Below are positions 7,515-25,139 of a stretch of 64,000 nucleotides of DNA, piece by piece (the first letter of the stretch is position 1; each line of letters begins with the position of its first letter). Source of the stretch: Phycisphaerales bacterium. GTDB lineage: Bacteria; Planctomycetota; Phycisphaerae; SM23-33; FEN-1343. Both the position numbers and the translations under genes were made by a program. Under the pieces are notes generated by a model. The model saw only the letters and a program-made list of their open reading frames with translations, was not told the origin of the DNA and did not search any database. The stretch is taken from contig PMYD01000025.1 of NCBI GenBank assembly GCA_003171335.1, forward strand, positions 2,682 to 66,681, written 5' to 3'.

Positions 7515-7540
7515 GCTCCTTCCTCCTGATCCGTCCGAAC

Positions 7541-10364: not shown

Positions 10365-11597
10365 TTAACGGCCCTTCAATCGGTGGTACATCTCCAGCGC
10401 CGCCGGGAAGGGGCCGAGGGCCCGCTCGAGGATGCCCAGCGTATAGGCGATGGTCATGCCGTAATTGGCAACCGGCACGCCCGCCGCACGGCAGCGGAGC
10501 AGGCGCGAGAGCATCTCGCGGCGGTTCCACATGCAGGCACCGCAGTGGATGACGAGTTTGTAGGTCGAGAGGTCATCGGGGAAGTCGTGGCCCTGCACGT
10601 GCGTGAAGTCCATGGTGCCGCCGACATATTGCGTGAGCCAGCGCGGGATCTTCACGCGGCCGATGTCATCACCGATGGGGTGGTGGCTGCACGCCTCGGC
10701 CACCAGGATGCGGTCGCCGGGGCGGAGCTGCTCGATGGCCAGCGCACCCTCGACGAACACGTTCAAATCGCCCTTGGCGCGGGCGAAGACGATGGAGAAC
10801 GAGGTCAGCGGAATATCCTTGGGCGTGTCGCCGGCCACCTTGAGAAAACCCTGGGAATCGGTCACGACCAGGGCGGGGGGGCGCTTGAGCCGGTCCAGGG
10901 CATCGCGCAGCTCGCGCTCCTTGACGACCAGGCAGTACGCATCCACATCCAGCACATCGCGGATGGCCTGCACCTGCGGCAGGATGAGCCGGCCCTTGGG
11001 GGCCTCCAGGTCGATGGGCACGACCAGCATGACCAGCTCGCCCGCGCGCACGAGGTCGCCGATGATGGCCGGGGCGTTGATGAAATCCTCCGGCGCGGCC
11101 TTGATGAGCGCCTCGCGCAGGTCCAGGATGCCCTCGCCCTTGGAGGCGACGGTGTGGACGATGGGAATCTTCCTGCCCTTGAGGTCCTTCAGGAGCGCCG
11201 CATCGGGCTTTCCCAGGTCGGACTTGTTGAACACGACGATGGCCGGGGTCTTTCGCTCCGCCAGCTCGGCCAGGATGGCCTGTTCAAACGGACCCCACTC
11301 GCCGGCGGCCGTGACGAGGATGCCGACATCCGTGCGGTCGAACACCTGCCGCGTGCGCTTGACCCGCAGCTCGCCCAGCACGCCCACATCGTCGATGCCG
11401 GCGGTGTCGATGAACAGCACCGGGCCGATGGGCAGCAGCTCCATGGGCTTTTCCACCGGGTCGGTGGTCGTGCCGGCGATCTCCGAGACGATCGACACCG
11501 CCTGGCGGGTCATGGCGTTCAAGAGCGAGCTCTTGCCGACATTCCGCCGGCCGAAGATGCCGATGTGCAGACGAAAACCTTTGGGAGTACTTCTCAT
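10365..11597 (-). CDS. hydF: [FeFe]-hydrogenase maturation GTPase HydF
   Basis: N-terminal GTPase P-loop GIFGRRNVGKSSLLNA. C-terminal HydF cluster-binding motifs ..EACSHHPIGDD.. and ..IHCGACMWNRRE.. (CxH...HCxxC). The track's start 11603 is TTG; the ATG two codons in (complement of 11595-11597, MRSTPKGF...) is more likely. Confidence 0.85.
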   Translation of the reverse strand: MRSTPKGFRLHIGIFGRRNVGKSSLLNAMTRQAVSIVSEIAGTTTDPVEKPMELLPIGPVLFIDTAGIDDVGVLGELRVKRTRQVFDRTDVGILVTAAGEWGPFEQAILAELAERKTPAIVVFNKSDLGKPDAALLKDLKGRKIPIVHTVASKGEGILDLREALIKAAPEDFINAPAIIGDLVRAGELVMLVVPIDLEAPKGRLILPQVQAIRDVLDVDAYCLVVKERELRDALDRLKRPPALVVTDSQGFLKVAGDTPKDIPLTSFSIVFARAKGDLNVFVEGALAIEQLRPGDRILVAEACSHHPIGDDIGRVKIPRWLTQYVGGTMDFTHVQGHDFPDDLSTYKLVIHCGACMWNRREMLSRLLRCRAAGVPVANYGMTIAYTLGILERALGPFPAALEMYHRLKGR

Positions 11598-11603
11598 GTT
11601 CAA

Positions 11604-11784: not shown

Positions 11785-13176
11785 TCAAGACCCCAGCCGG
11801 GTTACGTTTTCCGGACTGATCAGCTTATCAAATTCCTCGCCGGTCAAGATGCCTTGCTCGATGACCACCTCGCGCACGCTGCGGCCGCTGCGGCCGGCAT
11901 CGAGGGCGATTTGCTGGGCGGCGGGGTAGCCGATTCTCTCGACCAGGGCGGTTACAGCCGCCGTGGCGGAGCGGACCTGGGCGCTGCAGCGGTCGCGGTC
12001 GGCCTCGATGCCCTCAACGCACAGCCGGCGGAAGATGGAGCAGGCGGCGGTGAGGAGCTGGAGGCTTTCGAGCAGGCAGTCGGCGATGAGGGGCACGAAG
12101 GCGTTGAGTTCCAGCGAGCCCAGACTGGCGGCCTGGGCGATGGCCTGGTCGTTGGCCATGACGCGGATGGCCGCCTGCGTGACCGCCTCGGGGATGACCG
12201 GGTTGACCTTGCCGGGCATGATGGATGAACCCGCCTGGCGCGCGGGCAGGCGAATCTCCCCGAGGCCGGCCTGCGGACCGGAAGAGAGCCACCGCAGATC
12301 CGTGGAAACTTTTACGAGGCTGGTCGCCAGGGCTTTCAAAATTCCGCTGACCTCGACGAACGCATCCACATTCTGCGTGGCCTCGACGAGATTCTCCGCC
12401 CGCGCCAGACCCAGGCCGGTGATATCGCGCAGATGCTCCACGGCGCGGAAGATGAACTGCCGCGGGGCGCCCAGCCCTGTGCCGATGGCTGTACCGCCCA
12501 GGTTCACCACGCGCAGCCGCTCTTCGCACTTGTACACCCGCCAGCGGTCGCGGCTGAAGGCCTCGGCATAGGCGGACATCTCGCGGCCCAGCGTGGTCAA
12601 GACGGCATCCTGCATCTGCGTGCGGCCGACTTTGACCACATCGGCCAGGGCCTTCTCCTGAACCTGGAAGGCCTCGAGCAGGGCGGTGATCTCGCGTTCC
12701 AGGTCGCGCAGCATGCGGATGGCCGCGACTTTGAGCGCTGTGGGGTACGTGTCGTTGGTGGACTGGTGCAGGTTCAGGTCATCCAGCGGGCTGATGGCCT
12801 CGTAATCGCCGAGCTTGCGGCCGAGAATCTGCAGCGCGCGATTGGCCAGCACCTCGTTCACGTTCATATTGGTCGATGTGCCGGCCCCGCCCTGGAGGGC
12901 ATCGACGCGGATATGCTCATCCAGCAAGCCCTCGGCCATCTCCGCGCACGCCTGCTCAATGGCGATGCTCTTGGCATCGTCCCACTTGCCCAGCTCGTGA
13001 TTCGTCCGCGCGCACGCCAGCTTCACCGCGCCAAAGGCCCGGATGAGCTGAGGATGTATGGGTCTTCCGCTGAGAGGAAAATTTTCCAGGGCGCGTTCGG
13101 TATAAATGCCGTGGAGTGCGCCGGCGGGAACCTCGCGCTCGCCGAGGAGGTCTTTTTCTGTGCGGAAGTCAGCCAC
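11785..13176 (-). CDS. aspartate ammonia-lyase-like class II lyase (aspartase/fumarase superfamily), sitting between hydG and hydF
   Basis: Motifs TEKDLLGEREVPA, QGGAGTSTNMNVNEVLAN, HQSTNDTYPTA, GRTQMQDAVLTTLG, and signature GSSIMPGKVNPVIPE (the aspartase-like KVNPV(I/V)PE rather than fumarase KVNPTQCE). The track start 13212 is TTG inside a heptamer repeat; the GTG at complement 13174-13176 gives a canonical N-terminal length. Confidence 0.8.
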   Translation of the reverse strand: MADFRTEKDLLGEREVPAGALHGIYTERALENFPLSGRPIHPQLIRAFGAVKLACARTNHELGKWDDAKSIAIEQACAEMAEGLLDEHIRVDALQGGAGTSTNMNVNEVLANRALQILGRKLGDYEAISPLDDLNLHQSTNDTYPTALKVAAIRMLRDLEREITALLEAFQVQEKALADVVKVGRTQMQDAVLTTLGREMSAYAEAFSRDRWRVYKCEERLRVVNLGGTAIGTGLGAPRQFIFRAVEHLRDITGLGLARAENLVEATQNVDAFVEVSGILKALATSLVKVSTDLRWLSSGPQAGLGEIRLPARQAGSSIMPGKVNPVIPEAVTQAAIRVMANDQAIAQAASLGSLELNAFVPLIADCLLESLQLLTAACSIFRRLCVEGIEADRDRCSAQVRSATAAVTALVERIGYPAAQQIALDAGRSGRSVREVVIEQGILTGEEFDKLISPENVTRLGS

Positions 13177-13191
13177 AGTCGGGGACTCCAA

Positions 13192-13500
13192 ATTCCAAAT
13201 TCCAAATCCCAAATCCCAAACAACGGTTCGACCGCCCTGAGCGGCTCACCGCCGAAGGGGCTCCAAATCCCAAATTCCAAAGGGGAGCAAACATCCCGGT
13301 GCCACGGCTGCGTTGTTTGCAGCCGTGCGCTGTGTGAGTCGGTAAACGAGAGGTTCCTTGGCTTCCGCAGGACCTCTGGCAGCGCTGCCAGGTCTTGGCG
13401 CACGGCTGCAGAAGGCGCAGCCGTGGCACCAGGGACGTTTTGTTCCCATTTGGAATTTGGTGCTTGGGATTTGTTTGGGATTTGGAATTTGGGATTTGGG
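13192..13500. repeat. composite palindromic element: (CCAAATT/CCAAATC)n heptamer arms flanking an inverted pair of GTGCCACGGCTG..CAGCCGTGCGCT hairpins
   Basis: Left arm 13192-13225 and 13262-13280. Hairpins 13298-13332 and 13398-13430. Right arm 13442-13500 (GGAATTTGG..GGGATTTGGGATTTC). Lies between hydG stop and the aspA-like start. Confidence 0.8.
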
Positions 13501-13506: not shown

Positions 13507-14913
13507 TCACAGGTAGAGGTCCCTTTCCTGCGTCTCCCGAATCCGGCGCATTCTCTCTACAAGCTGGGTTTTGCCGGGATCCTCGGGCATCTTCTCAAGC
13601 TCGGCCGCGACCAAACGCTCGCCGGCCGTCCGCGTGGCGGGGGAGGCGTAATCGACGAGATACTCCTCCAGCGTGGTCAGCGCGTTGGGCGTGCACAGCC
13701 GCTGGATGAAGCCGGGGATGGCGAACTCCATGAAATGCTCGCCCGTGCGGCCCAGGCGGTAGCAGGAGGTGCAGAAGCTGGGGATGTAGCCATCATCCAG
13801 CAGCTCGCGCATCACGCGGTCGAGCGAGCGGACATCGCCCAGCTCGAACTGCTCGCGCTCCATCACCTGGGCATCGCCCGCCTCGGTGTAGCCGCCGATC
13901 TCGATGCGGCTGCCGGCGTCGATCTGGGAGACCCCAAAGGCCATCACCTCGCGCCGCAGCGCCGCCGGCTCGCGGGCGGTGAGGATCAGCCCGGTATAGG
14001 GGACGGATAACCGCAGGATGGCGATCAGCCGCTTGAACTGCTCATCATCGACGGCGTAGCGGCTGTCCAGGTCCGTGCCGGCGGCGGGGCGCAGGCGCGG
14101 GAAGCTGATCGTGTGCGGGCCGACGCCGTGGCGGTGCTGGAGGTACAGGGCGTGGCTGACCAGGCCGAGCACCTCGAAGCGCCAGTCGGCCAGGCCGAAA
14201 AGCGCGCCGATGCCCACATCGTCGCAGCCGGCATCCATGGCGCGGCTCAAGGCATCCAGCCGCCAGAGATAGTCGCCCTTGCGCGTGCCCGCCGGGTGCC
14301 ACTGGGCGTAGGCGCCGTGGTGGTAGGTCTCCATGAAGATCTGGTACGTGCCGATGCCGGCGGCTTTGACGAGGCGGTAGCCCTCGACATCCAGAGGGGC
14401 GGCGTTGATGTTCACGCGGCGGATCTCGCCGTGGCCGAGGCGCACCTCGTACACCTGCTTCACGCAGTCGGCGATGTAGGCGGCGTCGTACCGCGGGTGC
14501 TCGCCAAAGACCAGGATCGTCCGCTTGTGGCCCACGCGGACCATCGCCTCGACCTGCCGGCGGAGCTCCTCGGGACTCAGCGTGCGGCGGACCGAGGCGC
14601 GATTGGAGCAGCGGAAGCCGCAGTAGCCGCAGTCGTTGACGCAGTCGTTGCCGATGTAGAGCGGGGCAAAGAGCACGATGCGATTGCCGTACACATCGCG
14701 CTTGAGTTGCCTGGCGGCGGCGTAGATCTCCTCGATCAACTCCCGCTGCTCCGCGCGGAGCAGCACCGCTGTCTCCTCGACGGCCAGCGGCTGCTTCTCC
14801 AGGCTCTTGGCGATGATCTCGCGGACTTGGTCTGCCGCGGGGGCCTTGCCGGCCAACAGGCCCGACAGGTGGGCGTCGTCGATGAAATCGCTCGCCCGCT
14901 CATTCATTTTCAT
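13507..14913 (-). CDS. hydG: [FeFe]-hydrogenase maturase HydG (radical SAM tyrosine lyase)
   Basis: Radical SAM motif CVNDCGYCGF (CxxxCxxC). C-terminal HydG-specific CTSC-x22-C (..SFCTSCYRLGRTGEHFMEFAIPGFIQRLCTPNA..). ThiH-like overall. Start ATG at the complement of 14911-14913 (MKMNERASDF), or the next ATG at 14905-14907. Confidence 0.85.
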   Translation of the reverse strand: MKMNERASDFIDDAHLSGLLAGKAPAADQVREIIAKSLEKQPLAVEETAVLLRAEQRELIEEIYAAARQLKRDVYGNRIVLFAPLYIGNDCVNDCGYCGFRCSNRASVRRTLSPEELRRQVEAMVRVGHKRTILVFGEHPRYDAAYIADCVKQVYEVRLGHGEIRRVNINAAPLDVEGYRLVKAAGIGTYQIFMETYHHGAYAQWHPAGTRKGDYLWRLDALSRAMDAGCDDVGIGALFGLADWRFEVLGLVSHALYLQHRHGVGPHTISFPRLRPAAGTDLDSRYAVDDEQFKRLIAILRLSVPYTGLILTAREPAALRREVMAFGVSQIDAGSRIEIGGYTEAGDAQVMEREQFELGDVRSLDRVMRELLDDGYIPSFCTSCYRLGRTGEHFMEFAIPGFIQRLCTPNALTTLEEYLVDYASPATRTAGERLVAAELEKMPEDPGKTQLVERMRRIRETQERDLYL

Positions 14914-14976
14914 GCTTGCCAGAACACCCATACTACACCTTGCCTTGCTACACATTCGAAAAGGATCAAGTTCTTA

Positions 14977-15098
14977 GGTGCCACGGCTGTCCGCAGCCGT
15001 GCGCTGTGCGGACAACAGGGCAACCGGTTCGCTGGCTTCCAGCGGACCTTTCCGCGTTCTGGTCATTCCAGCGCACGGCTGCGGACAGCCGTGGCACC
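14977..15098. repeat. inverted pair of GGTGCCACGGCTGTCCGCAGCCGTGCGCT hairpins separated by ~65 bp
   Basis: First hairpin 14977-15006, second (inverted copy) 15070-15098. The stop of the REC-HK gene (15063) falls between them, so the second hairpin encodes that protein's last ~11 residues. A near-identical pair occurs at 42736..42860. Confidence 0.85.
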
Positions 15099-16238
15099 GG
15101 GGACTAGACCGGGGACCAGACTCTTGCCCAACGTCACCGTAAACGTGGTGCCCACGTCCGCCTGGCTGGTGGCGGCCACATCGCCGTCGTACAGGGCGGC
15201 GAGTTTCTTCACGATGGACAGGCCCAGGCCGCTGCCGACGATCCGCCGCGTCTTGTCGTTGCGGATGCGGCCGAATTCGGTGAACAGCTTGCCGATTTCC
15301 TCGGCCGACATGCCGATACCCGTGTCGGCCACGGCCAAGGTGACGGCCGCCGCCGACTGGCCGATCTGGACATCCACGCGGCCGTCGGGGCGGTTGTACT
15401 TGATCGCGTTGGAGATCAGGTTGTTCAGGATGATCTCCAGCTCCTGCCGGTCGGCCGTCATCACGGCCCCAGAGCCGGCCAGAGACACCGTCACGCCGGC
15501 CTCGCTGGCTTGGCCGGCGAAACTCTCGACGACCTCCGCCGCCACGGCCGCCACATCCAGCTCGACCAGCTCGCGTTTCATCTGGCCCGACTCGATCCGA
15601 GTCAGGTCCAGCAGGTCCTGGATGAGCTTGCGCATGGCGGTCAAACGGAACAGCGAGCGATCGAGCATCTGGTCGTACGTGGCTTGGTCGCTACCCGCCT
15701 GGCGGTGCAGAACGATCCGCAGGTAGCCCTCGATGGCGCCGATGGGGGCCTTGAGCTCGTGGGCCAGCACGGAAAGAAACTGGAAGCGCACCTGACGCTT
15801 CTCCTGGGCCAGCCGGCGGGCCTCGCGCTGGAGCAGCAGGTGCTTGGCCGCCTTGCGCACCGCGCCTTTGAGTTCATCGGGCGTGAAGGGTTTGGCAAGA
15901 AAGTCGTACGCGCCGCGCTTCGTGGCGGCCACGGCCGTGTCGAGCGAGGCGTAGGCGGTGATCATCACCGTCAGCACGTCCTGCTCGCCATCGGCCAGCT
16001 TACCCAGCACGTCCAAACCGCTCATGCCCGGCAGCTTGTGGTCCAGCAGCAGGATGTCAGGGGCCTGGGACGCGATCGACTCGAGCGCCTGCTCGCCGGT
16101 GGCCGCCTCGGCGACTTCAAAGTGCACGTCCCCGTTGATTTCGCGCAAGCGGACGGTGAAATCGCGCAGCGCCCGCTTAACGCCTTGGCGCATGCCAGGC
16201 TCATCGTCGACCACGAGGACTTGAAGGGGGCTGTTCAT
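15063..16238 (-). CDS. hybrid two-component protein: N-terminal receiver (REC) domain fused to HisKA/HATPase histidine kinase
   Basis: Verified ATG (complement of 16236-16238): MNSPLQVLVVDDEPGMRQGVKRAL... REC features: DD pair, ..LLLDHKLPGMSG.., K in ..FLAKPF... HisKA H-box ..LAHELKAPIGAIEGY... HATPase ..DTGIGMS.., ..GSGLGLSIVKK... Confidence 0.75.
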   Translation of the reverse strand: MNSPLQVLVVDDEPGMRQGVKRALRDFTVRLREINGDVHFEVAEAATGEQALESIASQAPDILLLDHKLPGMSGLDVLGKLADGEQDVLTVMITAYASLDTAVAATKRGAYDFLAKPFTPDELKGAVRKAAKHLLLQREARRLAQEKRQVRFQFLSVLAHELKAPIGAIEGYLRIVLHRQAGSDQATYDQMLDRSLFRLTAMRKLIQDLLDLTRIESGQMKRELVELDVAAVAAEVVESFAGQASEAGVTVSLAGSGAVMTADRQELEIILNNLISNAIKYNRPDGRVDVQIGQSAAAVTLAVADTGIGMSAEEIGKLFTEFGRIRNDKTRRIVGSGLGLSIVKKLAALYDGDVAATSQADVGTTFTVTLGKSLVPGLVPGATAVRSRALE

Positions 16239-16260
16239 AGTGAGTGCCTCTGTTCTTTTC

Positions 16261-16397
16261 GATTTCAAATTTCAAATTTCAACTTTGGTGGCACAGGCTT
16301 TCCAGCCTGTGGATTCTGGCCGTCACAGGCTGGAAAGCCTGTGCCACCACTCCCGCTGTTTCCGGCAGTTAAATTTGAAATTTGAAATTTGAAATCC
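16261..16397. repeat. palindromic element: (TTTCAAA)n heptamer arms flanking two inverted GGTGGCACAGGCT-TTCC-AGCCTGTGG hairpins
   Basis: Left arm GATTTCAAATTTCAAATTTCAACTTTGG (16261-16286). Hairpins 16287-16312 and 16324-16350. Right arm AGTTAAATTTGAAATTTGAAATTTGAAATCC (16367-16397). Lies between the HydS-HK stop and the REC-HK start. Confidence 0.85.
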
Positions 16398-16398
16398 C

Positions 16399-18405
16399 TC
16401 ATTCTTTTCCTTCCCTGCGTGGCAGCGTAATGGCGAAAGTCGTTCCCGTCGGCCCGGCGGCCTTGTCGGCGTTGGAGGTGACCTGGATGTCGCCGCGATG
16501 CATCTTCACCACGCCATACGCCACCGCCAGCCCCAGGCCGGTGCCCACGCCGATCTGCTTGGTCGTGAAGAACGGCTCGAAGATCTTCGTCAGGTTTTCC
16601 TTGGGAATACCCACGCCGGTATCGCTGACGGCCAGCGTGACTTTATCCTCATCGCCGCCGGCGCGGAGGGTCAACGTGCCGCCGGCCTCCATGGCTGCCA
16701 CGGCGTTGGTCAGCAGGTTGGTGAGCACCTGGATCATCTGGTCGGCGTCGAGGTCCGCCTCATCGTCATCTTCGCTCAGGTCCACGTGCGTTTCCAGGCG
16801 AATGGAGTCTGGAATATTCACCGAGCGCAGCGCCCGCTGAATAAGCTGGCGCAGGCTGACCGGCTGGAGCAGCACCTTGTTCTGCCGGGCAAAGTGCAGC
16901 AGACCGGAGACGATGCGCTTGCAGCGGTCGGCCTGCTCGGTGATCACGCTCATGTCCTGGCGCAGTTGCTCATTGCCGGCGTGCTCTTCCAGCAGCAGGT
17001 GCGCGTACATCAGCACGATGCCCAGCGGGTTATTCACCTCATGCGCGATGCCCGCGGCGAGCTGGCCCATGCTGGCCAGCTTCTCCGACTGCATCAGCGC
17101 CTCCTGGGCGCTGGCAAGTTCCTTATGCGACTCGGCCAACTGCGTGACGGTGGTGTGGAGCTGGTCGATCGTGTACGGCAGGCACATCTCCGTCTCGGCC
17201 AGGCCCTTGAAGATGGCCACGGCGTGCTCGCGGCAGGTGTCGTAGCCGCAGGCGCCGCAATTCAGCTCATCGGCGGCGGTCTGCTTGCCGATGCGCGCCA
17301 GGATCTGCCGGACCTCCTCTTCAAACGGCACGCTGATATGCTGGTCCTGCGCGGTGTAAGTGCGAGACAGGTCCAGGTCGGCCAGGCTCTCCATGTCGCG
17401 CTGCCAGCGGGCCTGGTCGAAATGGCGCAGCCGCTGGCGGACGTACTCGGCCACGCGCGCCCGGCGGAAGAAGACCGGGGTCTCGGGGGAGATGCCCGGG
17501 CCAGTGATGCAGCCCTTGCAGGCTAAGAGCTCCAGCAGCCTCGCGTCCAGGTCGCCGGTCTCGAATTCCTTGATCGCATCCACAAAATCCGTGCGGCCGT
17601 CGGCGGCGACGACGTGGCCTTCGAGCAGATCCTCGTGGATGTCGGCCGCCTGCAGCAGGCCGCGGCTGATGGAAAACAGCGCCCCAAGGCCCGCGTGCGG
17701 CGCATCAAAATCATCCTGCGCCGCCGGCTTAGGGACGATGCCCGTCTGCTGAAACATCGCCCGCAGCTCGGGAAATGTCAGCGCGGCATCCACCTCGCCG
17801 GTGAGGTGTGGGTTATCCACCTCGCCCTTTTTGGCCACGCAGGGTCCGATGAACACCACGCGCAGCTTGTCATGCCGGCCGCGGCGCAGCGCGCGGGCGA
17901 TGGCCACCATGGGCGAGACGATCGGCGCCAGGGCGTCCACCAGGTCGGGGTGATATTTTTCCACGAACGCCACGACCGCCGGGCAGCTTGTGGCGATGTA
18001 CCGCCGGCCGGCCGAGGCTTCCAGCAGCTTGCGGTAGCGGTCGGCCACCAGGTCGGCCCCGAAGCCCACCTCATGCACGGCCGCGAACCCCAGCTCGCGA
18101 ATCATGCCCACCAACTGCCGCCAGGAGCACTCGGTGAACTCCGCGGGAAAGCTGGGCGCCAGCACGGCGACCACGGGCTCACCCCCCGCCAGCAGCGTGC
18201 GGACGTGAACGGTGGAGTCCAGGACGACCTTGGCCTTCTGGCTGCACACGCGGACGCAGTTGCCGCAGCCGATGCAGCGTTCCGCCAGCACCTCGGCCTG
18301 GCCCTTGCCGATGCGGATGGCCTTGGCCGGGCACTCCCGCACGCAGGTGTAGCACACCCGGCAGCGCTCTTTGGCGGTCTGGACGAGATGGGTGGCGGAG
18401 GTCAT
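16399..18405 (-). CDS. sensory [FeFe]-hydrogenase-like protein (HydS-type H-domain) fused to a histidine kinase
   Basis: Verified ATG (complement of 18403-18405): MTSATHLVQTAKE... Two ferredoxin [4Fe-4S] motifs: CRVCYTCVRECP and CIGCGNCVRVC. Degenerate H-cluster motifs: ATSCPAV (L1 with a single Cys), GPCVAKKGE (L2, Gly in place of Met), ELLACKGCITGPG (L3, Leu in place of Met). Extra C-terminal NCGACGYDTCREHAVAIFKGLAETEMC (Cx2Cx4Cx16C). Then HisKA H-box ..GIAHEVNNPLG.. and HATPase ..DTGVGIP.., ..GTGLGLAVAYG... Confidence 0.75.
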   Translation of the reverse strand: MTSATHLVQTAKERCRVCYTCVRECPAKAIRIGKGQAEVLAERCIGCGNCVRVCSQKAKVVLDSTVHVRTLLAGGEPVVAVLAPSFPAEFTECSWRQLVGMIRELGFAAVHEVGFGADLVADRYRKLLEASAGRRYIATSCPAVVAFVEKYHPDLVDALAPIVSPMVAIARALRRGRHDKLRVVFIGPCVAKKGEVDNPHLTGEVDAALTFPELRAMFQQTGIVPKPAAQDDFDAPHAGLGALFSISRGLLQAADIHEDLLEGHVVAADGRTDFVDAIKEFETGDLDARLLELLACKGCITGPGISPETPVFFRRARVAEYVRQRLRHFDQARWQRDMESLADLDLSRTYTAQDQHISVPFEEEVRQILARIGKQTAADELNCGACGYDTCREHAVAIFKGLAETEMCLPYTIDQLHTTVTQLAESHKELASAQEALMQSEKLASMGQLAAGIAHEVNNPLGIVLMYAHLLLEEHAGNEQLRQDMSVITEQADRCKRIVSGLLHFARQNKVLLQPVSLRQLIQRALRSVNIPDSIRLETHVDLSEDDDEADLDADQMIQVLTNLLTNAVAAMEAGGTLTLRAGGDEDKVTLAVSDTGVGIPKENLTKIFEPFFTTKQIGVGTGLGLAVAYGVVKMHRGDIQVTSNADKAAGPTGTTFAITLPRREGKE

Positions 18406-18429
18406 GACAACCTCGGGCGTATTGCTGAA

Positions 18430-18551
18430 GGAATTGCGAATTGCAAATTGCAAATTGCAAATTGGGGAACTCCGAACCTCCCGCCGCTGTGGGCAGTGAG
18501 TGGCGATCCGGTGTCCCTGAATTGGCAATTTGCAATTCGCAATTGGCAATC
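18430..18551. repeat. palindromic element: (AATTGCA)n left arm and inverted (TGCAATT/TGGCAATT) right arm flanking an ~55 bp GC-rich core
   Basis: GGAATTGCGAATTGCAAATTGCAAATTGCAAATTGG ... GAATTGGCAATTTGCAATTCGCAATTGGCAATC. Sits immediately upstream of the HydS-HK start and downstream of the CheY gene stop. Confidence 0.8.
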
Positions 18552-18555
18552 TCTT

Positions 18556-18972
18556 CTAGCTGTCGTTTGGCGCGCAGGCCTTGTCGCCCAGCAGCCGGGC
18601 GACCTCCGCGCGGATCTGCTCAGCGCGGACGGGTTTATCGAGGATCAGGTCGGCCTTGACCCAGCTCTTGGCGTCTTCATCGTTGGGCACGAACGACAGG
18701 CCCGTGGCGGCGGCGACGGAGGTCAGCAGGATGACCGGCACATCCCCGTGCACGCGCTTGAGGTGGTAGGCCAGCACGAAGCCGCTGTCCATCTGCTCCA
18801 TCATCAGGTCCAGGATGGCCAGGTCGGGCTTTTGGCCTAAGAGCAGCTCCTCGCCCTGGCGCTGGCTGTGGCCGGCCTGCACCTCGTAGCCGTCGGCCTG
18901 GAGCACCAAGGTGAGTTGGGAAACGATGTCTTCGTCATCATCCACAATCAAGATTCTGGGCTTGCTGTTCAT
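18556..18972 (-). CDS. single-domain CheY-like response regulator (receiver only)
   Basis: Verified ATG (complement of 18970-18972): MNSKPRILIVDDDEDIV.. REC hallmarks ..DLAILDLMM.. and ..LLTSV... No output domain. Confidence 0.75.
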   Translation of the reverse strand: MNSKPRILIVDDDEDIVSQLTLVLQADGYEVQAGHSQRQGEELLLGQKPDLAILDLMMEQMDSGFVLAYHLKRVHGDVPVILLTSVAAATGLSFVPNDEDAKSWVKADLILDKPVRAEQIRAEVARLLGDKACAPNDS

Positions 18973-18992
18973 TTTCAAATGTCTCTCAGTTC

Positions 18993-19115
18993 GATTGCAA
19001 ATTGCCAATTGCAAATTGCCAATTAAAAACTCTTCCGCAGGAAGTGCCGCTTGATCGGCGCGGCGCCTCGCCGCAGCTCTTCAATTTGCAATTTGCAATT
19101 GGCAATTGGCAATCC
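18993..19115. repeat. palindromic element with (AATTGCA/AATTGCC) heptamer arms, related to 18430..18551
   Basis: GATTGCAAATTGCCAATTGCAAATTGCCAATT ... CAATTTGCAATTTGCAATTGGCAATTGGCAATCC. Fills the hydA-stop / CheY-start spacer. Confidence 0.8.
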
Positions 19116-20837
19116 TTACAGGGGAACTTCCCGCTTATGGTAGTGCGTGTGCAACAGGTGGTGGCTCTTCTCGCCCAGGGGCTTGCCCAGGAACTCGTCG
19201 TACAGCCGCGTGATCCAGGGGTTGGCGTGACTGACGCGGCGCGGCTCATCGCGGTCGATCTTGTACAGGGCCTGCATGCGCGCCCGCACCGACTCGAGGT
19301 CGGCGCCGATGGGCTGGCCGCCGCCGTTGATGCAGCCGCCGGGGCAGGTCATGATCTCGATGAACTGGAGGTCTTTGCGCCCGGCCCGCAACTGGTCCAA
19401 GAGCTGGCGGGCGTTGCCCAGGCCGCTGGCGACGGCGGCGCCGACGTCCAGCGTGCCGATGGTGGTGCGAAGCTCCTTGATGCCCTTCATGCCGCGCAGC
19501 GGCTGGATCTTCAAATCGCCCATCTCCTGGCCGGTGATCAGGTAGTACGCCGTGCGGACGGCCGCCTCCATGACGCCGCCGGAGGCGCCGAAAATCTTGC
19601 CGGCGGTAGTGCGCTCGCCGAAGGGCGTATCGGCCGCCTCGGCCTCCAGGGCCGCCAGGTTCACGCCGAACATCCGCAGCAACTGGCCCAGCTCGCGGGT
19701 GGTCAGCACGTAGTCCACATCGGGGACGTGGTTGGGCTGCATCTCCGGCCGCGCGCACTCGAACTTCTTGGCCGTGCAGGGCATGATCGACACGCTCACG
19801 ATATTGCCCGGCTCGATGTTCTCGCGCTGGGCGAAGAAGCTCTTGATGATCGCCCCCATCATCTGCTGGGGGCTCTTGCACGTGGAGAGGTTGGGGATGA
19901 ACTCCGGGTAGAACTGCTCCACGAATTTGATCCAGCCGGGCGAGCAACTGGTCATCATGGGCAGCACGCCGCCGGTGGTGACGCGATGCACCAGCTCGCT
20001 GGCCTCTTCCATGATGGTCAGATCGGCGGCAAACGAGGTATCAAAAACGCGGTCAAAGCCCACGCGGCGCAGGGCGGCCACCATCTTGCCGTCCACGTCC
20101 GTGCCGGGCTTTAAGCCGACTTCCTCGGCCAGGCTCACGGAGACCGCCGGGGCATGCTGGGCGATGACCAGCTTGGTCGGGTCGGCCAGGGCCGCCACCA
20201 CGGCGTCGAGGCTGGAGCGCTCGGACAGCGCGCCCGTCGGGCAGACCAGGATGCACTGCCCGCAGTTGATGCAACTGGAGAGGTTGAGCCCGGCGTTAAA
20301 CGCCGTGCCCACGAACGCCCGGCTGCCGCGGGCGATGAAATCCACGGCCGAGACGGTCTGGTATTCCTCGCACATGCGGACGCACCGGCCGCACAGGATG
20401 CACTTGCTCGGGTCGCGCAGGATGGAGGGGCTGGAGACATCCAGCTCACGTTTGCTCTTGGCGCCGCGATACAGCCGCTGGCGCACGCCCAGGTCCATCG
20501 CCAGGTGTTGCAGTTCGCACTTGCCGCCGCGCGGGCAGTACAGGCAGTCGTCGGGGTGGTTGCTCAGGAGCAGTTCCACGATGGTCCGCCGGGCCTCCAG
20601 CACGCGCGGGGTGCGGGTGCGGATCTTCAGCCCTTCGCTCACCGGGCAGGAGCAGGCGGTGACCAGGTTGCCCGTGCCTTCCACCTCGACCACGCACAGC
20701 CGGCAGGCGCCGCTGGGCGCCAGCCCGTCCATGTGGCACAGCGTGGGCACGTGAATGCCCTCGCGCCGCAGCGCCAGCAGAATCGTCTCGCCCGGCTTGG
20801 CCGCAATCTCGCGGCCGTCCGCTAGAAAAGTAGTCAT
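19116..20837 (-). CDS. hydA: [FeFe]-hydrogenase catalytic subunit HydA (M3-type, CpI/bifurcating-like), with an unusual L1 motif
   Basis: Verified ATG (complement of 20835-20837, GAGGAT SD). N-terminal 2Fe-2S ferredoxin-like domain. His-ligated cluster motif HPDDCLYCPRGGKC. Two 4Fe-4S motifs CILCGRCVRMC and CINCGQCILVCP. H-cluster motifs MMTSCSPGW (L1, normally TSCCPxW), MPCTAKKFE (L2), EIMTCPGGCINGGGQP (L3). Confidence 0.9.
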   Translation of the reverse strand: MTTFLADGREIAAKPGETILLALRREGIHVPTLCHMDGLAPSGACRLCVVEVEGTGNLVTACSCPVSEGLKIRTRTPRVLEARRTIVELLLSNHPDDCLYCPRGGKCELQHLAMDLGVRQRLYRGAKSKRELDVSSPSILRDPSKCILCGRCVRMCEEYQTVSAVDFIARGSRAFVGTAFNAGLNLSSCINCGQCILVCPTGALSERSSLDAVVAALADPTKLVIAQHAPAVSVSLAEEVGLKPGTDVDGKMVAALRRVGFDRVFDTSFAADLTIMEEASELVHRVTTGGVLPMMTSCSPGWIKFVEQFYPEFIPNLSTCKSPQQMMGAIIKSFFAQRENIEPGNIVSVSIMPCTAKKFECARPEMQPNHVPDVDYVLTTRELGQLLRMFGVNLAALEAEAADTPFGERTTAGKIFGASGGVMEAAVRTAYYLITGQEMGDLKIQPLRGMKGIKELRTTIGTLDVGAAVASGLGNARQLLDQLRAGRKDLQFIEIMTCPGGCINGGGQPIGADLESVRARMQALYKIDRDEPRRVSHANPWITRLYDEFLGKPLGEKSHHLLHTHYHKREVPL

Positions 20838-20852: not shown

Positions 20853-20975
20853 CCGTGGCACGGGCGTCTCGCCCGTGAGTCGCACGGGCATCTTGCCCGT
20901 GATCCGGCCGTTTCTTCTCAGTTTCCACGGGCGAGACGCCCGTGGCACTCATGGGCGGGACGCCCATGCTACTCT
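20853..20975. repeat. cluster of four CACGGGCG-NNNN-GCCCGTG family hairpins in the hydB-hydA intergenic spacer
   Basis: CACGGGCGTCTCGCCCGTG, CACGGGCATCTTGCCCGTG, CACGGGCGAGACGCCCGTGGCAC, CATGGGCGGGACGCCCATG, all read directly. A second cluster of the same family is at 38676..38795. Confidence 0.85.
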
Positions 20976-23900
20976 TAATCCGGTTGCGTGAACTCCAGGT
21001 CGCAGCGCAGGCAGCGGCGGGCCTCCTTGACGGCATCCGCCTCGCTGATACACAGCTCGACCTCGGCGAAGGTGCACTTGCGCTGGCCCACGGGCAGCTC
21101 GGGGCACTTGACGCGCTCGACGATTGTCTCCGACTCCTCATCGTCGCCGCCGCCCGCCACGGGCGCCACGTACACCCCCGGCACGATGGCCTTGGGCAGC
21201 ACGCGCATGGCCTTGCCGCGGACGAACCGGTCGATCATGGCCGCCGCTTGCTTGCCGGTGCCCACCGCCGCAATGACGGTGGCCGGCCCGGTCACGGCGT
21301 CGCCGCCGGCGAAGATGCCCGTGCGACTGGTCTGGAAGCTCTCGCCGTTGGTCGCCACCGAGCCCCAGCGCGTAAGCGTCAATTGTTCGAGACCCTCGGT
21401 CTCGGGCTCCTCGCTGATGGCCACGACCAGCGTGTCCAGCTCCAGGTCGAATTCCGAGCCGGCGATCGGCACGGGCCGTTGCCTTCCGGAGGCATCGCGC
21501 TCGCCCAGCTTGTTGCGCTGCAGGCGCAGGCCGGTGAGCTTGCCATCTTTCGTGTGCACGGCCAGCGGGGCGACCAGCTCTTCAAGCTTGACGCCCTCTT
21601 GCAGCCCGGCCTCGACCTCTTCGTGGTAAGCCGGCATCTCCTCGCGCGTGCGGCGGTACAGCACCGTGACGCTGGTGACGCCTTTTTGCCGCAGGGCCAC
21701 GCGGGCGGCATCCATGGCGGAGTTGCCGCCGCCGATCACGCCCACCCGCCCGTGCGCCAGCTCCTGCCCGTGCAGGTTATGGGCCTTGAGGAAGGTCATG
21801 CTCGGGATGACGCCGCGGGCATCCTCGCCGGCTAGATCAAGCTTCTTGGACTTATGAGCGCCCGTGGCCACATAGACCGCGCTAAAACCCTGGGCCAGCA
21901 GGTCGTCCAGGCTGAAATCGCGGCCCAGTGCCGTGTTGTAGCGGATCTCGACGTTGGGATTGGTCAGCGCATCGATCTCCCGCCGCAACAGATCGCGCGG
22001 CAGCCGGTACGCCGGGATGGCGCCCACCAGCATGCCGCCGGGCTTGGCCTCGCGCTCAAAGACGGTCACGCGATGGCCCATCAGCGACAGGCAGTTGGCG
22101 GCCGTGAGGCCCGATGGCCCCGCGCCGATGACGGCGATCTTCGCCGCATTGGCCGCCGCCGGCGCCACCGCGGGCGTACCGACGCCGGGGCTGACGTGGT
22201 CCACGACGAACCGCTTGAGCGTACGCACGGCCACCGACTCACCGCCGGTTGAGCCGGCGCGGCAGGCGTGCTCGCACGGGTGATGGCACACGCGGGCGCA
22301 GGCCGAGGGGAACGGGTTACTCTGCCGGATCACCCGGTAGGCCTCCTCGTATTCGCCGCGGCCGATGTGGGCCACGTACCGCCACACTTCCGTGCCGGCG
22401 GGGCAGGCGTTCTGGCAGGGCGCGCCCACCAGGCTCTTGCACGCCCCGGCGGGGCAGCGGCGCTCGAAGACATGCGCCTCGTATTCCGCGCGGAACCATT
22501 TCAGCGTGCTCAGCACCGGGTTGGCGGCGGTCTGACCTAAGCCGCACAGGCTGGTGGCCTTGATCATCTCGCCCAGCCGCTCCAGGTGCATGATGCCCTG
22601 CACCCGCAGCAGGCTGTCGAAGGGGCTCTCCTGGCGCGGGCTGCGCGTCAACGCCTGGAGGATTTCCAGCATGCGCTTGGTGCCTTCGCGGCAGGGAATG
22701 CACTTGCCGCAGCTCTCCGACTGGATGAACTCCATGAAGAACTTGGCGAAATCGACCATGCAGGTCGCCTGATCAACCACCACCAGGCCCCCCGAACCCA
22801 TGATGGTCCCAAACTTCTTGAGCGCCTCGTAATCGGTCGGAATATCCAGCTCTTTTTCCGGCACGCAGCCGCCGGAGGGCCCGCCGATCTGCACGGCTTT
22901 GCACGCCTTGTTGTTGGGAATGCCGCCGCCGATATCAAACACCACCTGCCGCAGCGTGGTGCCCATGGGCACCTCCACCAGGCCGGTGCGGCGGACCATG
23001 CCCGAGAGGGCGAACACCTTGGTGCCCTTGGAGCTGGCCGTGCCCATGGCGGCGTACCACTGCGGGCCAATGTCAAGAATAAGGGGCAGATTCGCCAGCG
23101 TCTCCACGTTGTTGATGACCGTGGGCTTGCCGAACAGGCCCTTGACCGCCGGGTAGGGCGGCCGCGGCCGCGGCATGCCGCGCCGGCCTTCGATGCTGTG
23201 GATGAGCGCCGTTTCCTCGCCGCACACGAACGCGCCGGCGCCCTGCTTGATGACGATCTCCAGGGAGAAGCCGCTGTCCAGCACGTTCTCGCCGATCAGC
23301 CGGTACTGCCGCGCCTGGGCCATCGCCTGCTGAAGGCGGCGGATGGCCACGGGGTACTCGGCGCGGATGTAGATGTACGCCTTGGACGCGCCGATGGCGT
23401 AGGCCGCGATGAGCATGCCTTCCAGCAGCCGGTGCGGATCGCTCTCGCCCACGGCCCGGTCCATGAACGCGCCGGGGTCGCCCTCGTCGGCGTTGCAGAT
23501 GAGATATTTCTGGTTCGCCTGGGAGGCGCGGGCGAATTTCCACTTCTTGCCAGTGGGGAACCCGCCGCCGCCGCGGCCGCGCAGGCCGCTGGCTTCCACC
23601 TGGTCGCAGACTTCCTCGGGCGTCATCTTGCCCAGCACCTTGGCCACGGCCGAGTAGCCGCCCCAGGCGATGTATTCATCGATGCTTCCCGGGTCCAACA
23701 GGCCGCTGGTGGCCAGCACCACGCGCCGCTGGCGGATGAGGAACGGGTGCTCGTCGAGATAGCGCACCTGGTCCCAGGGCTTTAGCAAGAGCCCTTCCTG
23801 CCGGAACTGGCCCAGCGCCGCGCCCTCGGCGACCTTGGCATCGACCAGCACCGCCTTGAGCACGGCCTCGACCTTGTCGGCCGTGGCATTTCCAAAGCAG

Positions 23901-24259
23901 ATGCGCGTGCGGCCGGGCATCTGCACATCGAGCAGGGGCTCTTCCGAGCACAGGCCGATGCAGCCGACCTCGATCACCTCGGCATCGAGATTGCCCTTGG
24001 CGATGTACTCGCGCACGGCGGCGAGCGTTTTGCCCGCCCCAGCGCCCAGGCCGCACGTGCCGGTGCCGATGAAGATCACCGGCTTGGCCACATCCTGGCG
24101 GCGCAGGGCCGACAGCCGCCCGGCCAGCACATCGGCCCCCGCGCTCTTGGCGGCGGCCAGCGGGCCGGCGGGAATCCAGTCCAAGAGCTCGGGCGAGACC
24201 GGCCGAGCGCCCAGCCAGCAACGATCAAAAGCCACGGCAGCGGTATTAGCATCCGGCAT
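20975..24259 (-). CDS. hydB: hydrogenase NADH-dehydrogenase-like subunit HydB: NuoF (51 kDa, FMN/NAD-binding) fused to a C-terminal GltD-like FAD/NAD(P) oxidoreductase domain
   Basis: Verified ATG (complement of 24257-24259). NuoF hallmarks ..GGGGFPTGKKW.., ..LICNADEGDPGAF... Cys-rich Fe-S motifs. Then a GltD-like region: ..CQNACPAG.., ..KIAVIGAGPSGLTAA.., ..GRVGVIGGGNSAMD... Confidence 0.85.
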   Translation of the reverse strand: MPDANTAAVAFDRCWLGARPVSPELLDWIPAGPLAAAKSAGADVLAGRLSALRRQDVAKPVIFIGTGTCGLGAGAGKTLAAVREYIAKGNLDAEVIEVGCIGLCSEEPLLDVQMPGRTRICFGNATADKVEAVLKAVLVDAKVAEGAALGQFRQEGLLLKPWDQVRYLDEHPFLIRQRRVVLATSGLLDPGSIDEYIAWGGYSAVAKVLGKMTPEEVCDQVEASGLRGRGGGGFPTGKKWKFARASQANQKYLICNADEGDPGAFMDRAVGESDPHRLLEGMLIAAYAIGASKAYIYIRAEYPVAIRRLQQAMAQARQYRLIGENVLDSGFSLEIVIKQGAGAFVCGEETALIHSIEGRRGMPRPRPPYPAVKGLFGKPTVINNVETLANLPLILDIGPQWYAAMGTASSKGTKVFALSGMVRRTGLVEVPMGTTLRQVVFDIGGGIPNNKACKAVQIGGPSGGCVPEKELDIPTDYEALKKFGTIMGSGGLVVVDQATCMVDFAKFFMEFIQSESCGKCIPCREGTKRMLEILQALTRSPRQESPFDSLLRVQGIMHLERLGEMIKATSLCGLGQTAANPVLSTLKWFRAEYEAHVFERRCPAGACKSLVGAPCQNACPAGTEVWRYVAHIGRGEYEEAYRVIRQSNPFPSACARVCHHPCEHACRAGSTGGESVAVRTLKRFVVDHVSPGVGTPAVAPAAANAAKIAVIGAGPSGLTAANCLSLMGHRVTVFEREAKPGGMLVGAIPAYRLPRDLLRREIDALTNPNVEIRYNTALGRDFSLDDLLAQGFSAVYVATGAHKSKKLDLAGEDARGVIPSMTFLKAHNLHGQELAHGRVGVIGGGNSAMDAARVALRQKGVTSVTVLYRRTREEMPAYHEEVEAGLQEGVKLEELVAPLAVHTKDGKLTGLRLQRNKLGERDASGRQRPVPIAGSEFDLELDTLVVAISEEPETEGLEQLTLTRWGSVATNGESFQTSRTGIFAGGDAVTGPATVIAAVGTGKQAAAMIDRFVRGKAMRVLPKAIVPGVYVAPVAGGGDDEESETIVERVKCPELPVGQRKCTFAEVELCISEADAVKEARRCLRCDLEFTQPD

Positions 24260-24737
24260 TGGCGTGTTCCTGATGACGGCAGTCCTGGAGAATTCGTGTG
24301 CACTTGCGCGGCGTGACCTTGGCGTAGAACTCGCCGTTGATGTTCACCACCGGCGAGAGGCCGCAGGCGCCCATGCAGGCCACCACCTCGAGCGAGAAGA
24401 GCCCATCCCGGGTCGTCTGACCGGGACTGATCTTCAGCTCCTTCACCACCGCCTCCAGCACCGACAGCGAGCCTTTCACGTGACAGGCCGTGCCGCGGCA
24501 CACCTGCACGTGATACTTGCCCGGCCGCGTGAAGCGGAACTGGTTGTAAAACGTGGCGACGCCATAGATCTTGCTCGTGGGCAAGTTGAGGTGCTTGCCC
24601 ACCCGCATGATGACATCCTTGGAAAGGTACCCGTGCGCGGTCTGGATCTCCTGGAGAATGGGGATGAGCGTCTCACGCCCCGCCCCGGGGTGCCGCGCGA
24701 GAATCGGTTCAATGTCCGGCTCTACCATCGTGGCCAT
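24246..24737 (-). CDS. hydC: hydrogenase NuoE-like [2Fe-2S] thioredoxin-fold subunit HydC
   Basis: MATMVEPDIEPILARHPG.. from ATG (complement of 24735-24737, GGAAGG SD). NuoE motifs ..VQVCRGTACHVKG.. and ..EVVACMGACGLSPVV... Overlaps the hydB start by 14 nt. The ORF-track extension to 25139 is not credible. Confidence 0.8.
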   Translation of the reverse strand: MATMVEPDIEPILARHPGAGRETLIPILQEIQTAHGYLSKDVIMRVGKHLNLPTSKIYGVATFYNQFRFTRPGKYHVQVCRGTACHVKGSLSVLEAVVKELKISPGQTTRDGLFSLEVVACMGACGLSPVVNINGEFYAKVTPRKCTRILQDCRHQEHANAGC

Positions 24738-24760
24738 CCTTCCGCTGACTTTGGTACCTG

Positions 24761-24815
24761 AAAAAAACCGGCCTTCTGGAGGAGCGTTTTCGCATCGCTC
24801 CTCGCAGCCGGCCGG
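24761..24815 (-). terminator. intrinsic-terminator-like hairpin plus U7 tract on the minus strand, ~24 nt upstream of the hydC start codon
   Basis: Minus-strand RNA: CCGGCUGCGAGGAGCG-AUGCGAAAA-CGCUCCUCCAGAAGGCCGG, immediately followed by UUUUUUU (plus-strand A7 at 24761-24767). Confidence 0.5.
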
Positions 24816-24840
24816 CGGGCACGGCTGGGCCGGTTGGTGG

Positions 24841-24894
24841 CCCAGGCTTTCAGCCTGTGGCCTAAGTTTGGTGGCACAGGCTTTTAGCCTGTGG
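24841..24894. repeat. two REP-like hairpins (CCCAGGCT-TTC-AGCCTGTGG and GGTGGCACAGGCT-TTT-AGCCTGTGG)
   Basis: Read directly. Same family as 7541..7606, 16287..16350 and 52106..52129. Confidence 0.8.
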
Positions 24895-24986
24895 CCGAAC
24901 CTGTTCCGGCTCGCTTCATCATCGGTCGTTCGGCGTTGCAGCTTGTGAACCAGGCAACGCCCCAGCGTTGTTAAATCGCAAACGCT

Positions 24987-25002
24987 GTGAAAGCTTTCAC
25001 AA
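24987..25002. promoter_or_regulatory. perfect CRP/FNR-family-type palindrome TGTGA-AAGCTT-TCACA about 250 bp upstream of hydC
   Basis: TGTGAAAGCTTTCACA read directly, within the only low-GC stretch of the hydCBA upstream region (..TTAAATCGCAAACGC TGTGAAAGCTTTCACA ACCTTTATATGCCACC..). Confidence 0.45.
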
Positions 25003-25139
25003 CCTTTATATGCCACCGGGGCCAGGACGTCAAGCATCTTTTTGCGTGATTCGGACGGCATTGCCGGGCGGCAGGGAGGGTCAGAATATTGTAAGTTACT
25101 TAAGGAAAACATGTTACGTATTTTGGCGCGGGAATTCAA

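Follow-up and report, generated by a model that had tools for sequence, protein, structure and literature searches.

Does the hydrogenase island in a 64-kb stretch of Phycisphaerales DNA (contig PMYD01000025.1; hereafter the window, meaning this whole stretch) encode a hydrogenase-like sensor and a kinase in one polypeptide, and, if so, to what would such a protein respond? The question concerns a minus-strand gene at 16399..18405, whose product had been taken, in an earlier reading made from the letters alone (the sequence-only reading), for a degenerate [FeFe]-hydrogenase domain fused to a histidine kinase. Our analysis leads us to regard this product as probably a non-catalytic HydS-type (putative sensory, group C-like) module built into a soluble, likely dimeric kinase, which would respond to H2 or redox state and regulate H2 metabolism through a relay formed by a receiver (REC) protein and a REC-histidine kinase (REC-HK) hybrid. 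The gene and its domains are as follows:

16399..18405, minus strand: gene of the HydS-type sensor histidine kinase, 668 aa (open reading frame and translation, Pfam matches, identical public protein P0001)
18232..18372, minus strand: N-terminal 2x[4Fe-4S] ferredoxin-like domain, residues 12-58 (Fer4_10, Fer4, Fer4_9 and Fer4_7 matches)
17497..18177, minus strand: [FeFe]-hydrogenase H-domain, residues 77-303 (Fe_hyd_lg_C, E = 6.8e-46; L1, L2 and L3 motifs non-catalytic)
17176..17265, minus strand: C-terminal Cx2Cx4Cx16C Fe-S domain, residues 381-410 (PF04060 FeS, E = 2.7e-09)
17071..17181, minus strand: predicted coiled-coil signalling helix, residues 409-445, joining the fourth cluster cysteine to the dimerization and histidine phosphotransfer (DHp) helix (AlphaFold2 (AF2) helices, heptad conservation)
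16882..17070, minus strand: HisKA (DHp) domain, residues 446-508 (E = 2.1e-14; phospho-acceptor His455 in AHEVNNPL)
16414..16749, minus strand: HATPase_c catalytic ATP-binding domain, residues 553-664 (E = 8.1e-25)

The open reading frame spans 16399..18549 on the minus strand, and initiation at the ATG at 18405 yields a 668-aa product that is 100% identical, over the same length, to a protein already public in NCBI and ENA assemblies (P0001); homologs of the sensor kinase are 665-669 aa long. GC content by codon position (0.68/0.44/0.85) marks the gene as coding, as in its neighbours. A longer reading frame starting at a TTG at 18549 was considered and rejected, as the extension falls in an intergenic heptamer-repeat hairpin and homologs begin at the ATG.

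The order of domains along the protein (Fer4 dicluster, H-domain, Fe-S domain, HisKA, HATPase_c) is certain. The two ferredoxin clusters that the sequence-only reading had claimed correspond to Fer4 dicluster families at residues 12-58, whose eight cysteines (C15, C18, C21, C25, C44, C47, C50 and C54) are invariant or nearly so in an alignment of 121 sequences, comprising the query and 120 relatives (61-100% identity), to which the window's own catalytic HydA was added as a reference. An AF2 model built from 120 relatives (mean predicted local distance difference test score, pLDDT, of 84) renders the N-terminal 430 residues hydrogenase-like, with helices at residues 409-429, 435-474 and 479-507 followed by an alpha/beta ATPase domain. 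Foldseek places the N-terminal part near the solved [FeFe]-hydrogenases CbA5H, DdH and the HydA of HydABC, and the C-terminal part near ZraS (TM score 0.76). No NCBIfam model for the sensor-kinase fusion reaches its cutoff. The H-domain had also been described as running straight into the H-box; the two do share a polypeptide, but the junction is not direct, since between them lie a helical region (residues ~305-380), then the Fe-S domain and a helix of 47 residues. The kinase had further been read as lacking a preceding PAS domain, and a search for a hidden one bore this out: no PAS family matches the 668-aa protein in Pfam even at E <= 1, and no PAS fold lies between residues 400 and 470, the AF2 model showing residues 409-507 as helices only.

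Is the H-domain a working hydrogenase? To place its residues we used the numbering of the enzyme CpI, verified on a phmmer alignment of the window's HydA to solved CpI chains. L1 reads YIATSCPAVV and holds a single cysteine, C141, within the ATSCPAV already recognised from the sequence; L2 reads VFIGPCVAKKGE, its GPCVAKKGE likewise present as described, with G187 at the position of CpI Met353; and L3 reads LLELLACKGCITGPG, with L294 at the position of Met497. These replacements are fixed across the alignment (Gly at the Met353 position in 121/121, Leu at the Met497 position in 121/121). The residue before the L1 cysteine is Thr in 57 and Ser in 50 sequences (107/121), so that the relay cysteine (CpI C299) is gone, and the equivalents of CpI E279/E282/R286/S319 are R/K/gap/A, leaving no proton pathway. 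The prediction that the H-domain is degenerate, which intact catalytic motifs would have contradicted, therefore stands. Residues of the putative H-cluster pocket are retained: the cysteines at H-cluster positions (C141, C189, C296 and C299) and the equivalents of CpI Lys358 and Glu361 (K192 and E195) are invariant in 121/121 sequences, and the APS (residues 83-85) and SP (residues 164-165) stretches lining the diiron site are kept.

One feature of L3 escaped the sequence-only reading, which had correctly seen Leu for Met there: the two cysteines lie two residues apart (C296-K-G-C299, CxxC), versus three in catalytic enzymes (CPGGC, CxxxC). One recent survey holds CxxxC to be necessary for ligating the catalytic centre (PMC11216029), and the CxxC spacing puts binding of the [2Fe] subcluster in doubt, which is the main uncertainty in our interpretation and weighs against it. 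Were the [2Fe] subcluster missing, the protein would sense redox state through its Fe-S clusters. A rival explanation follows this line, in which the H-domain has only a [4Fe-4S] cluster, as in Nar1/Narf-like hydrogenase relatives, and the kinase, drawing also on the two N-terminal clusters and the C-terminal one, reports the reduction state of ferredoxin or NADH, not H2. The shortening of L3 throughout the clade, the missing proton pathway, an N-terminal dicluster domain that could dock ferredoxin, and the reported trouble in locating H-cluster motifs within certain group C sequences (PMC11406978) would all fit such a sensor. We nevertheless consider it unlikely, given that the Lys358 and Glu361 equivalents, APS and SP, which contact the [2Fe] ligands in CpI, are invariant or nearly so across deep divergence, that the gene adjoins hydA and the hyd maturase genes in most genomes, and that the sensory proteins TmHydS and TamHydS, with similar substitutions, do bind an H-cluster (PMC8163306). 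It is because the Lys358 and Glu361 equivalents and the other pocket residues are retained that binding of a [2Fe] subcluster by the CxxC variant can be argued.

How could the state of the H-domain reach the kinase? The additional Cx2Cx4Cx16C motif (NCGACGYDTC...C) reported from the sequence is indeed present, as C383, C386, C391 and C408, all invariant in 121/121 sequences, and a helix starts directly after C408, its fourth cluster cysteine. Along this helix L416, L423, L430, L437, A444 and A451 are invariant or near-invariant, a seven-residue spacing that runs toward His455. The distance from C408 to H455 is 47 residues in 118 of the 120 close relatives, the remaining pair having 40. In kinase-fused representatives that are more distant, the corresponding Cys-to-His distance is 33, 40, 47, 54 or 68, in steps of seven, with three exceptions (38, 48 and 49) and a few long linkers of 141-199 residues, which presumably contain an inserted domain. 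A distance quantised in heptads implies a continuous coiled coil whose register matters; the sequence pattern thus indicates a predicted coiled coil linking the Fe-S domain to the DHp domain, and singles out the C-terminal Fe-S domain as putative transmitter of the signal.

The receiving end of this helix is, as far as its sequence can tell, a bona fide HisKA/HATPase kinase core with no sign of degeneracy. HisKA scores 53.7 bits in Pfam, against a cutoff of 26.9, and HATPase_c scores 87.9 bits; across the 121 sequences H455 is invariant within AHE[VLI]NNPL, as are N563, N567, the DxGxG box D595-G597-G599 and the box G621-T-G-L-G-L626. In its DHp domain the protein can be aligned with ZraS and KinB, which together with AtoS are its nearest solved and curated relatives (ZraS 9jfj, E = 2.1e-36); the best NCBIfam matches, AtoS and ZraS, both fall under cutoff. 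The sequence-only proposal of a HisKA and HATPase pair, which would have failed had profile searches found no real kinase, is borne out by the Pfam matches, invariant H, N, G1 and G2 boxes and a ZraS-like fold.

We also asked how widely this arrangement occurs. A word-indexed search gave, among the matches listed, at least 120 clusters of close relatives (90% identity level). They share one Pfam architecture throughout, and several bear Joint Genome Institute (JGI) names such as 'signal transduction histidine kinase/iron only hydrogenase large subunit-like protein'. When one genome per species was scanned for the pattern, the same fusion turned up at 37 loci, not only in Planctomycetota, for which the sequence-only reading had proposed a survey, but also in Hydrogenedentota, Acidobacteriota, Desulfobacterota, Lentisphaeria, Bacteroidota, Latescibacterota and Melioribacteraceae. 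Judged by such comparisons the window protein is an ordinary member of a large, already catalogued family whose function is predicted from sequence. The description of it as a compact and little-studied H2 sensor-kinase accordingly holds in part: no biochemical work on a kinase-fused protein came up in the literature searched, but the fusion is neither rare nor new, being abundant, annotated by JGI and described in PMC11406978.

The sensor module alone (residues 1-425) has a still larger family, with 1040 representatives (50% identity clusters) at E <= 1e-30 in an exhaustive HMMER search. L3 types and output domains were counted in the best 150 of these 1040. The CxxC form of L3 occurs in 86/150, of which 38 end in a kinase; the canonical CxxxC form occurs in 58/150, of which one ends in a kinase and most are ~570 aa long with a PAS domain. 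Kinase fusions in this sample therefore carry CxxC in 38 of 39 cases, and Gly stands at the Met353 position in 79 of the 86 CxxC-type representatives. The CxxC proteins of at least 560 aa without a detected full-length kinase match (n = 33, within P0135-P0262) include 14 with a sigma-54 AAA+ activator (10 of them with HTH_8), 4 with GGDEF and several with PAS. Judged from their sequences, the sigma-54 fusions would act as one-component, hydrogenase-like activators of transcription and the GGDEF fusions as cyclases of the same kind; we found no paper describing such fusions of the HydS module in the literature searched. The attachment of one module to several signalling outputs is the strongest comparative argument that it senses rather than catalyses.

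What, then, would the kinase control? In the window the genes around it are co-oriented on the minus strand in the order hydC-hydB-hydA-REC-sensor kinase-REC/HK-hydG-aspA-hydF:

24246..25139, minus strand: HydC, NuoE-like [2Fe-2S] subunit (2Fe-2S_thioredx, E = 3.4e-49; start codon uncertain, with an N-terminal extension)
20975..24259, minus strand: HydB, NuoF-like flavoprotein with a GltD-like Fer4_20/Pyr_redox_2 module, 1094 aa (Pfam; NCBIfam nuoF_fam, PRK12771/PRK12814 stretches)
19116..20837, minus strand: HydA, catalytic [FeFe]-hydrogenase, group A bifurcating-type (Pfam; NF040763, 825.9 bits against a cutoff of 765)
18556..18972, minus strand: stand-alone REC protein, 138 aa, a conserved partner (Response_reg, E = 1.9e-15)
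15063..16238, minus strand: REC-HisKA-HATPase_c hybrid kinase, 391 aa, a conserved partner (Pfam)
13507..14931, minus strand: HydG maturase (TIGR03955, 489.6 bits against a cutoff of 312)
11785..13212, minus strand: aspartate ammonia-lyase-like gene between hydG and hydF (NF008909, 627.5 bits against a cutoff of 510)
10365..11603, minus strand: HydF maturase GTPase (TIGR03918, 562.3 bits against a cutoff of 325)

The proposed adjacency to a catalytic hydABC operon and the hydGF maturases is confirmed for all five genes by these Pfam and NCBIfam matches. HydA itself has 8a6t and 7q4v (HydA1) as its best solved relatives and keeps L2, L3 and the proton pathway intact. No [NiFe] hydrogenase family was found in the sensor kinase or its neighbours. 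We then counted neighbours at 31 loci with a full-length ortholog, taking as denominators the loci that could be assessed: HydA lies no more than 0.8 kb upstream of the sensor kinase in 24/30, the REC-HK hybrid no more than 1.5 kb downstream in 24/26, and the stand-alone REC gene is adjacent in 19/25. This gene order is kept across at least seven phyla, with loci in Planctomycetota, Hydrogenedentota, Acidobacteriota, Desulfobacterota, Lentisphaeria, Bacteroidota and Melioribacteraceae.

Such tight linkage might instead suggest that the protein is a fourth, metabolically active subunit of HydABC, turning over H2 or transferring electrons, with its kinase domain secondary. It has been named the T subunit ('BfuT') of BfuABC gene clusters and TamHydS keeps slow reversible catalysis (PMC11406978 and PMC8163306, respectively), and the gene is co-oriented and closely linked with hydABC. 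We hold this to be very unlikely: the catalytic residues of the kinase are invariant, neither the relay cysteine nor the proton pathway survives, the very same input module elsewhere carries a sigma-54 activator or GGDEF, the genes for the REC and REC-HK partners are conserved, and the module accompanies both long, GltD-fused and short forms of HydB. In a third rival explanation another H-cluster ligand, such as CO or O2, is sensed, with the kinase protecting or repressing the oxygen-sensitive hydrogenase. H-clusters do bind CO and react with O2, and TamHydS shows unusual reactivity toward both gases (PMC8163306); but we found no specific support for this in sequence or context, no genes of CO or O2 metabolism being conserved in the cluster, and we rate it as highly improbable.

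Returning to the HydS-type sensor kinase, we propose the following course of events. The H-domain would bind an H-cluster, matured by HydG and HydF from the same operon, and, having no proton relay, would turn over H2 slowly and equilibrate with ambient H2. Its redox state would pass to the C-terminal Cx2Cx4Cx16C [4Fe-4S] cluster, whose fourth ligand, C408, would sit at the base of the coiled coil running in heptad register into the DHp helix of His455, such that the redox or conformational state of the cluster could switch the balance between kinase and phosphatase activity. Phosphoryl groups would then enter the relay of the stand-alone REC protein and the REC-HisKA-HATPase hybrid kinase, the terminal output being encoded elsewhere or exerted by protein-protein contact, and the relay would tune fermentative H2 metabolism and the HydABC enzyme encoded alongside. 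The analysis shows the domain architecture, the motif states, their conservation, the synteny and the linker periodicity; the parts of this scheme that we infer are the binding of an H-cluster, the identity of the ligand as H2, whether regulation is positive or negative, and the partners and targets of phosphotransfer.

Beyond the L3 spacing, several observations tell against this scheme. The AF2 model is of a monomer, and its pLDDT drops below 50 at the junction residues 430-452. The conserved cluster yielded no DNA-binding response regulator; the additional REC genes that we inspected at related loci all encode stand-alone receivers. As the kinase is NtrB/ZraS-like we searched for a sigma-54 promoter (TGGCAC-N5-TTGC) upstream of hydC, and obtained only chance-level matches, none of them at that place. 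The presence of hydG and hydF in the operon would be expected for HydA anyway, and biochemical characterisation of any kinase-fused member was absent from the literature searched. The window's other REC genes likewise have no output domains.

A bolder view is that the kinase-fused proteins form a distinct, so far unrecognised sensory subclass, marked by CxxC L3, Gly353 and Leu497, whose input module is shared among kinases, sigma-54 activators and diguanylate cyclases, whose C-terminal [4Fe-4S] domain is a redox-to-mechanical transducer driving the heptad-registered coiled coil, and whose REC and REC-HK relay, which ends in no transcription factor, may act post-translationally on HydABC or fermentation. 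We offer this only tentatively, as a possibility on the doubtful side; if it were true, surveys demanding CxxxC would overlook the subclass. We found no mention of the CxxC L3, the heptad-quantised linker or the conserved output-less relay in the literature searched. To our knowledge, signal transmission has yet to be demonstrated for any 'sensory' [FeFe]-hydrogenase. TmHydS and TamHydS have reportedly been investigated on their own, as redox proteins lacking an output that could be measured. A fused kinase end gives a direct read-out, and could settle whether and how this class senses H2. Because the family occurs widely among anaerobes of the Planctomycetota, Hydrogenedentota, Bacteroidota, Desulfobacterota and other phyla, usually beside bifurcating hydrogenases, it is likely to be a frequent point of control over the H2 that fermentation releases in sediments and digesters, and its CxxC L3, heptad linker, output-less relay and sigma-54 and GGDEF fusions would make it a good experimental system.

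The hydrogenase genes themselves showed further variation among related loci. No hydE is present in the 64-kb window, in which a relative's HydE matches only hydG, and weakly, or in the locus of a Phycisphaerales relative (L001); most related loci carry a hydE-like radical-SAM gene between REC-HK and hydG (e.g., L002 11569-12630). The aspartate ammonia-lyase-like gene occupies the same position between hydG and hydF in L001, L002, L004, L005, L008, L009, L015 and L020, from several phyla, which suggests a conserved link to H-cluster maturation; as speculation, its product may supply ammonia or nitrogen for the azadithiolate bridge. The long, GltD-fused HydB occurs only in Planctomycetota loci (L001, L002, L006, L030 and L037), HydB being ~610 aa in other phyla that carry the same sensor kinase. 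In HydA of the window, L1 is TSCSPGW (residues ~297-303), with Ser at the position of CpI Cys300, a [4Fe-4S]H ligand, and this Ser recurs in the solved HydA1 chain 7q4v_A. Several of the bifurcating sub-types often have Ser here, and the NuoF-GltD-like fusion corresponds to the 'sub-type I BfuB', for which a second bifurcation site has been speculated (PMC11406978).

Sensor genes can also be duplicated. Bacteroidota loci L021-L024 and L028 contain, besides the kinase-fused copy, a second, kinase-less HydS paralog that is divergently oriented upstream of hydC and shares 36-37% identity with query residues 7-457 (up to 528 in L028), in agreement with a remark in PMC11406978. In L026 (annotated as uncultured Bacteroidetes) and L027 (Melioribacteraceae), two hydCBA sets flank the sensor, REC and HK genes. 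Within the window a second signalling triad lies 6 kb away on the plus strand (30847-35453) with the same layout, consisting of a 933-aa DUF4118-PAS-PocR-GAF-HisKA-HATPase kinase, a stand-alone 137-aa REC protein and a 413-aa REC-HisKA_3-HATPase hybrid, from which the combination of sensor HK, single REC and REC-HK looks recurrent in this organism.

The spacers between the genes are themselves unusual. Inverted tandem runs of AT-rich heptamers (e.g., CAAATTG, AAATTTC) bracket every intergenic spacer of the hyd operon (16255-16398, 18425-18555 and 18985-19118; also 13180-13290 and 8963-8994), from which spurious extensions of open reading frames arise, and which fold as RNA into long, very stable hairpins of -62 to -87 kcal/mol (z of -8 to -13 versus shuffles), with no U-tract following them. 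The 76%-identical Phycisphaerales relative (L001 5409-14477) has the same arrangement of hairpins between the same genes with different repeat units, so that structure, not sequence, is conserved; these hairpins may be intercistronic processing, stability or insulator elements. Two long tandem repeats, in which internal palindromes abound, precede hydC (25179-25443; 2.5 copies of a 107-bp unit) and the gene of the PocR-type kinase (30480-30685; 2.5-3.4 copies of a 61-62-bp unit), and could be regulator binding arrays or elements resembling repetitive extragenic palindromes (REP-like). Finally, a 1295-aa open reading frame at 3816-7703 on the minus strand has a dockerin type I domain (residues 1060-1110) as its sole Pfam match, which is unusual for a Planctomycetota-like genome.

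How does the protein compare with systems already described? HydDB divides group C into C1, 'histidine kinase-linked (putative)', C2, chemotactic, and C3, phosphatase-linked (PMC5037454), the C1 linkage being in practice to a neighbouring kinase gene (PMC8542988). Fusions mentioned for group C in a 2022 review and a 2024 survey are to PAS alone. The closest counterpart is the group C3 'BfuT' of a 2024 paper (PMC11406978), a putative sensory [FeFe]-hydrogenase likewise fused to a histidine kinase and encoded directly downstream of bfuA/hydA in Hydrogenedentota and Caldithrix abyssi (sub-type V BfuABC; HydDB C3 entry WP_006928132.1, from C. abyssi, compared by description). The Hydrogenedentota locus L011 shares the order hydB-hydA-sensor-REC-REC/HK, and its ortholog is 60-61% identical. 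Unlike sub-type V BfuT, the window copy lies in a Phycisphaerae-like genome and adjoins a HydB with a GltD-like extension; that paper assigns such a HydB to 'sub-type I' and reports forms with a DPD_II plus FAD extension, including in Planctomycetota, but says nothing on the linker, the CxxC L3 or the REC and REC-HK partners of BfuT (PMC11406978).

The sequence-only reading had further recognised hallmarks of HydS groups C and D, and here the group C pattern of motif losses, Met replacements and Cx2Cx4Cx16C motif is upheld, whereas the Ser/Thr of M2e at the Met353 position is not found. TmHydS of Thermotoga maritima (group C, M2f), compared by description, shares two N-terminal [4Fe-4S] motifs, the absence of the relay cysteine, Met353 to Gly and the C-terminal Cx2Cx4Cx16C motif, but ends in a PAS domain, lacks a kinase and has Ser at Met497 where the window protein has Leu (PMC8163306); in our survey the PAS-type relatives carry CxxxC L3, in contrast to CxxC in the kinase-fused clade. 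With no PAS after its Fe-S motif, the window protein lies outside M2f in the strict sense. TamHydS of Thermoanaerobacter mathranii (group D, M2e) shares the absence of PAS, Met497 to Leu and a C-terminal four-cysteine motif, and its gene, like the window gene, adjoins a bifurcating group A hydrogenase, as well as a kinase-like ATPase gene (PMC8163306). It differs in having no fused output domain and in its Ser at Met353, reported as a conserved M2e trait; the hydroxyl residue of group D is replaced in the window family by Gly in 121/121. As in the window protein, both TmHydS and TamHydS are without a proton pathway (PMC8163306).

Among functional counterparts the nearest, as an analogue only, would be the [NiFe] regulatory system HoxBC-HoxJ. 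There a hydrogenase that works slowly and conserves no energy signals the presence of H2 to a histidine kinase, and this kinase controls hydrogenase genes. HoxBC-HoxJ-HoxA places sensor and kinase on separate polypeptides, uses an unrelated metal site and fold and includes a DNA-binding response regulator, in contrast to the single polypeptide here; its sensor belongs to HydDB group 2b, 'histidine kinase-linked' (PMC5037454), and HoxJ has a PAS-like region (PMC8163306), unlike the window kinase. On the kinase side, HisKA kinases of the ZraS/AtoS/NtrB type share a homologous core of DHp and catalytic and ATP-binding domains, but differ in being membrane-bound, in their periplasmic or PAS inputs, and in being paired with sigma-54 activators.

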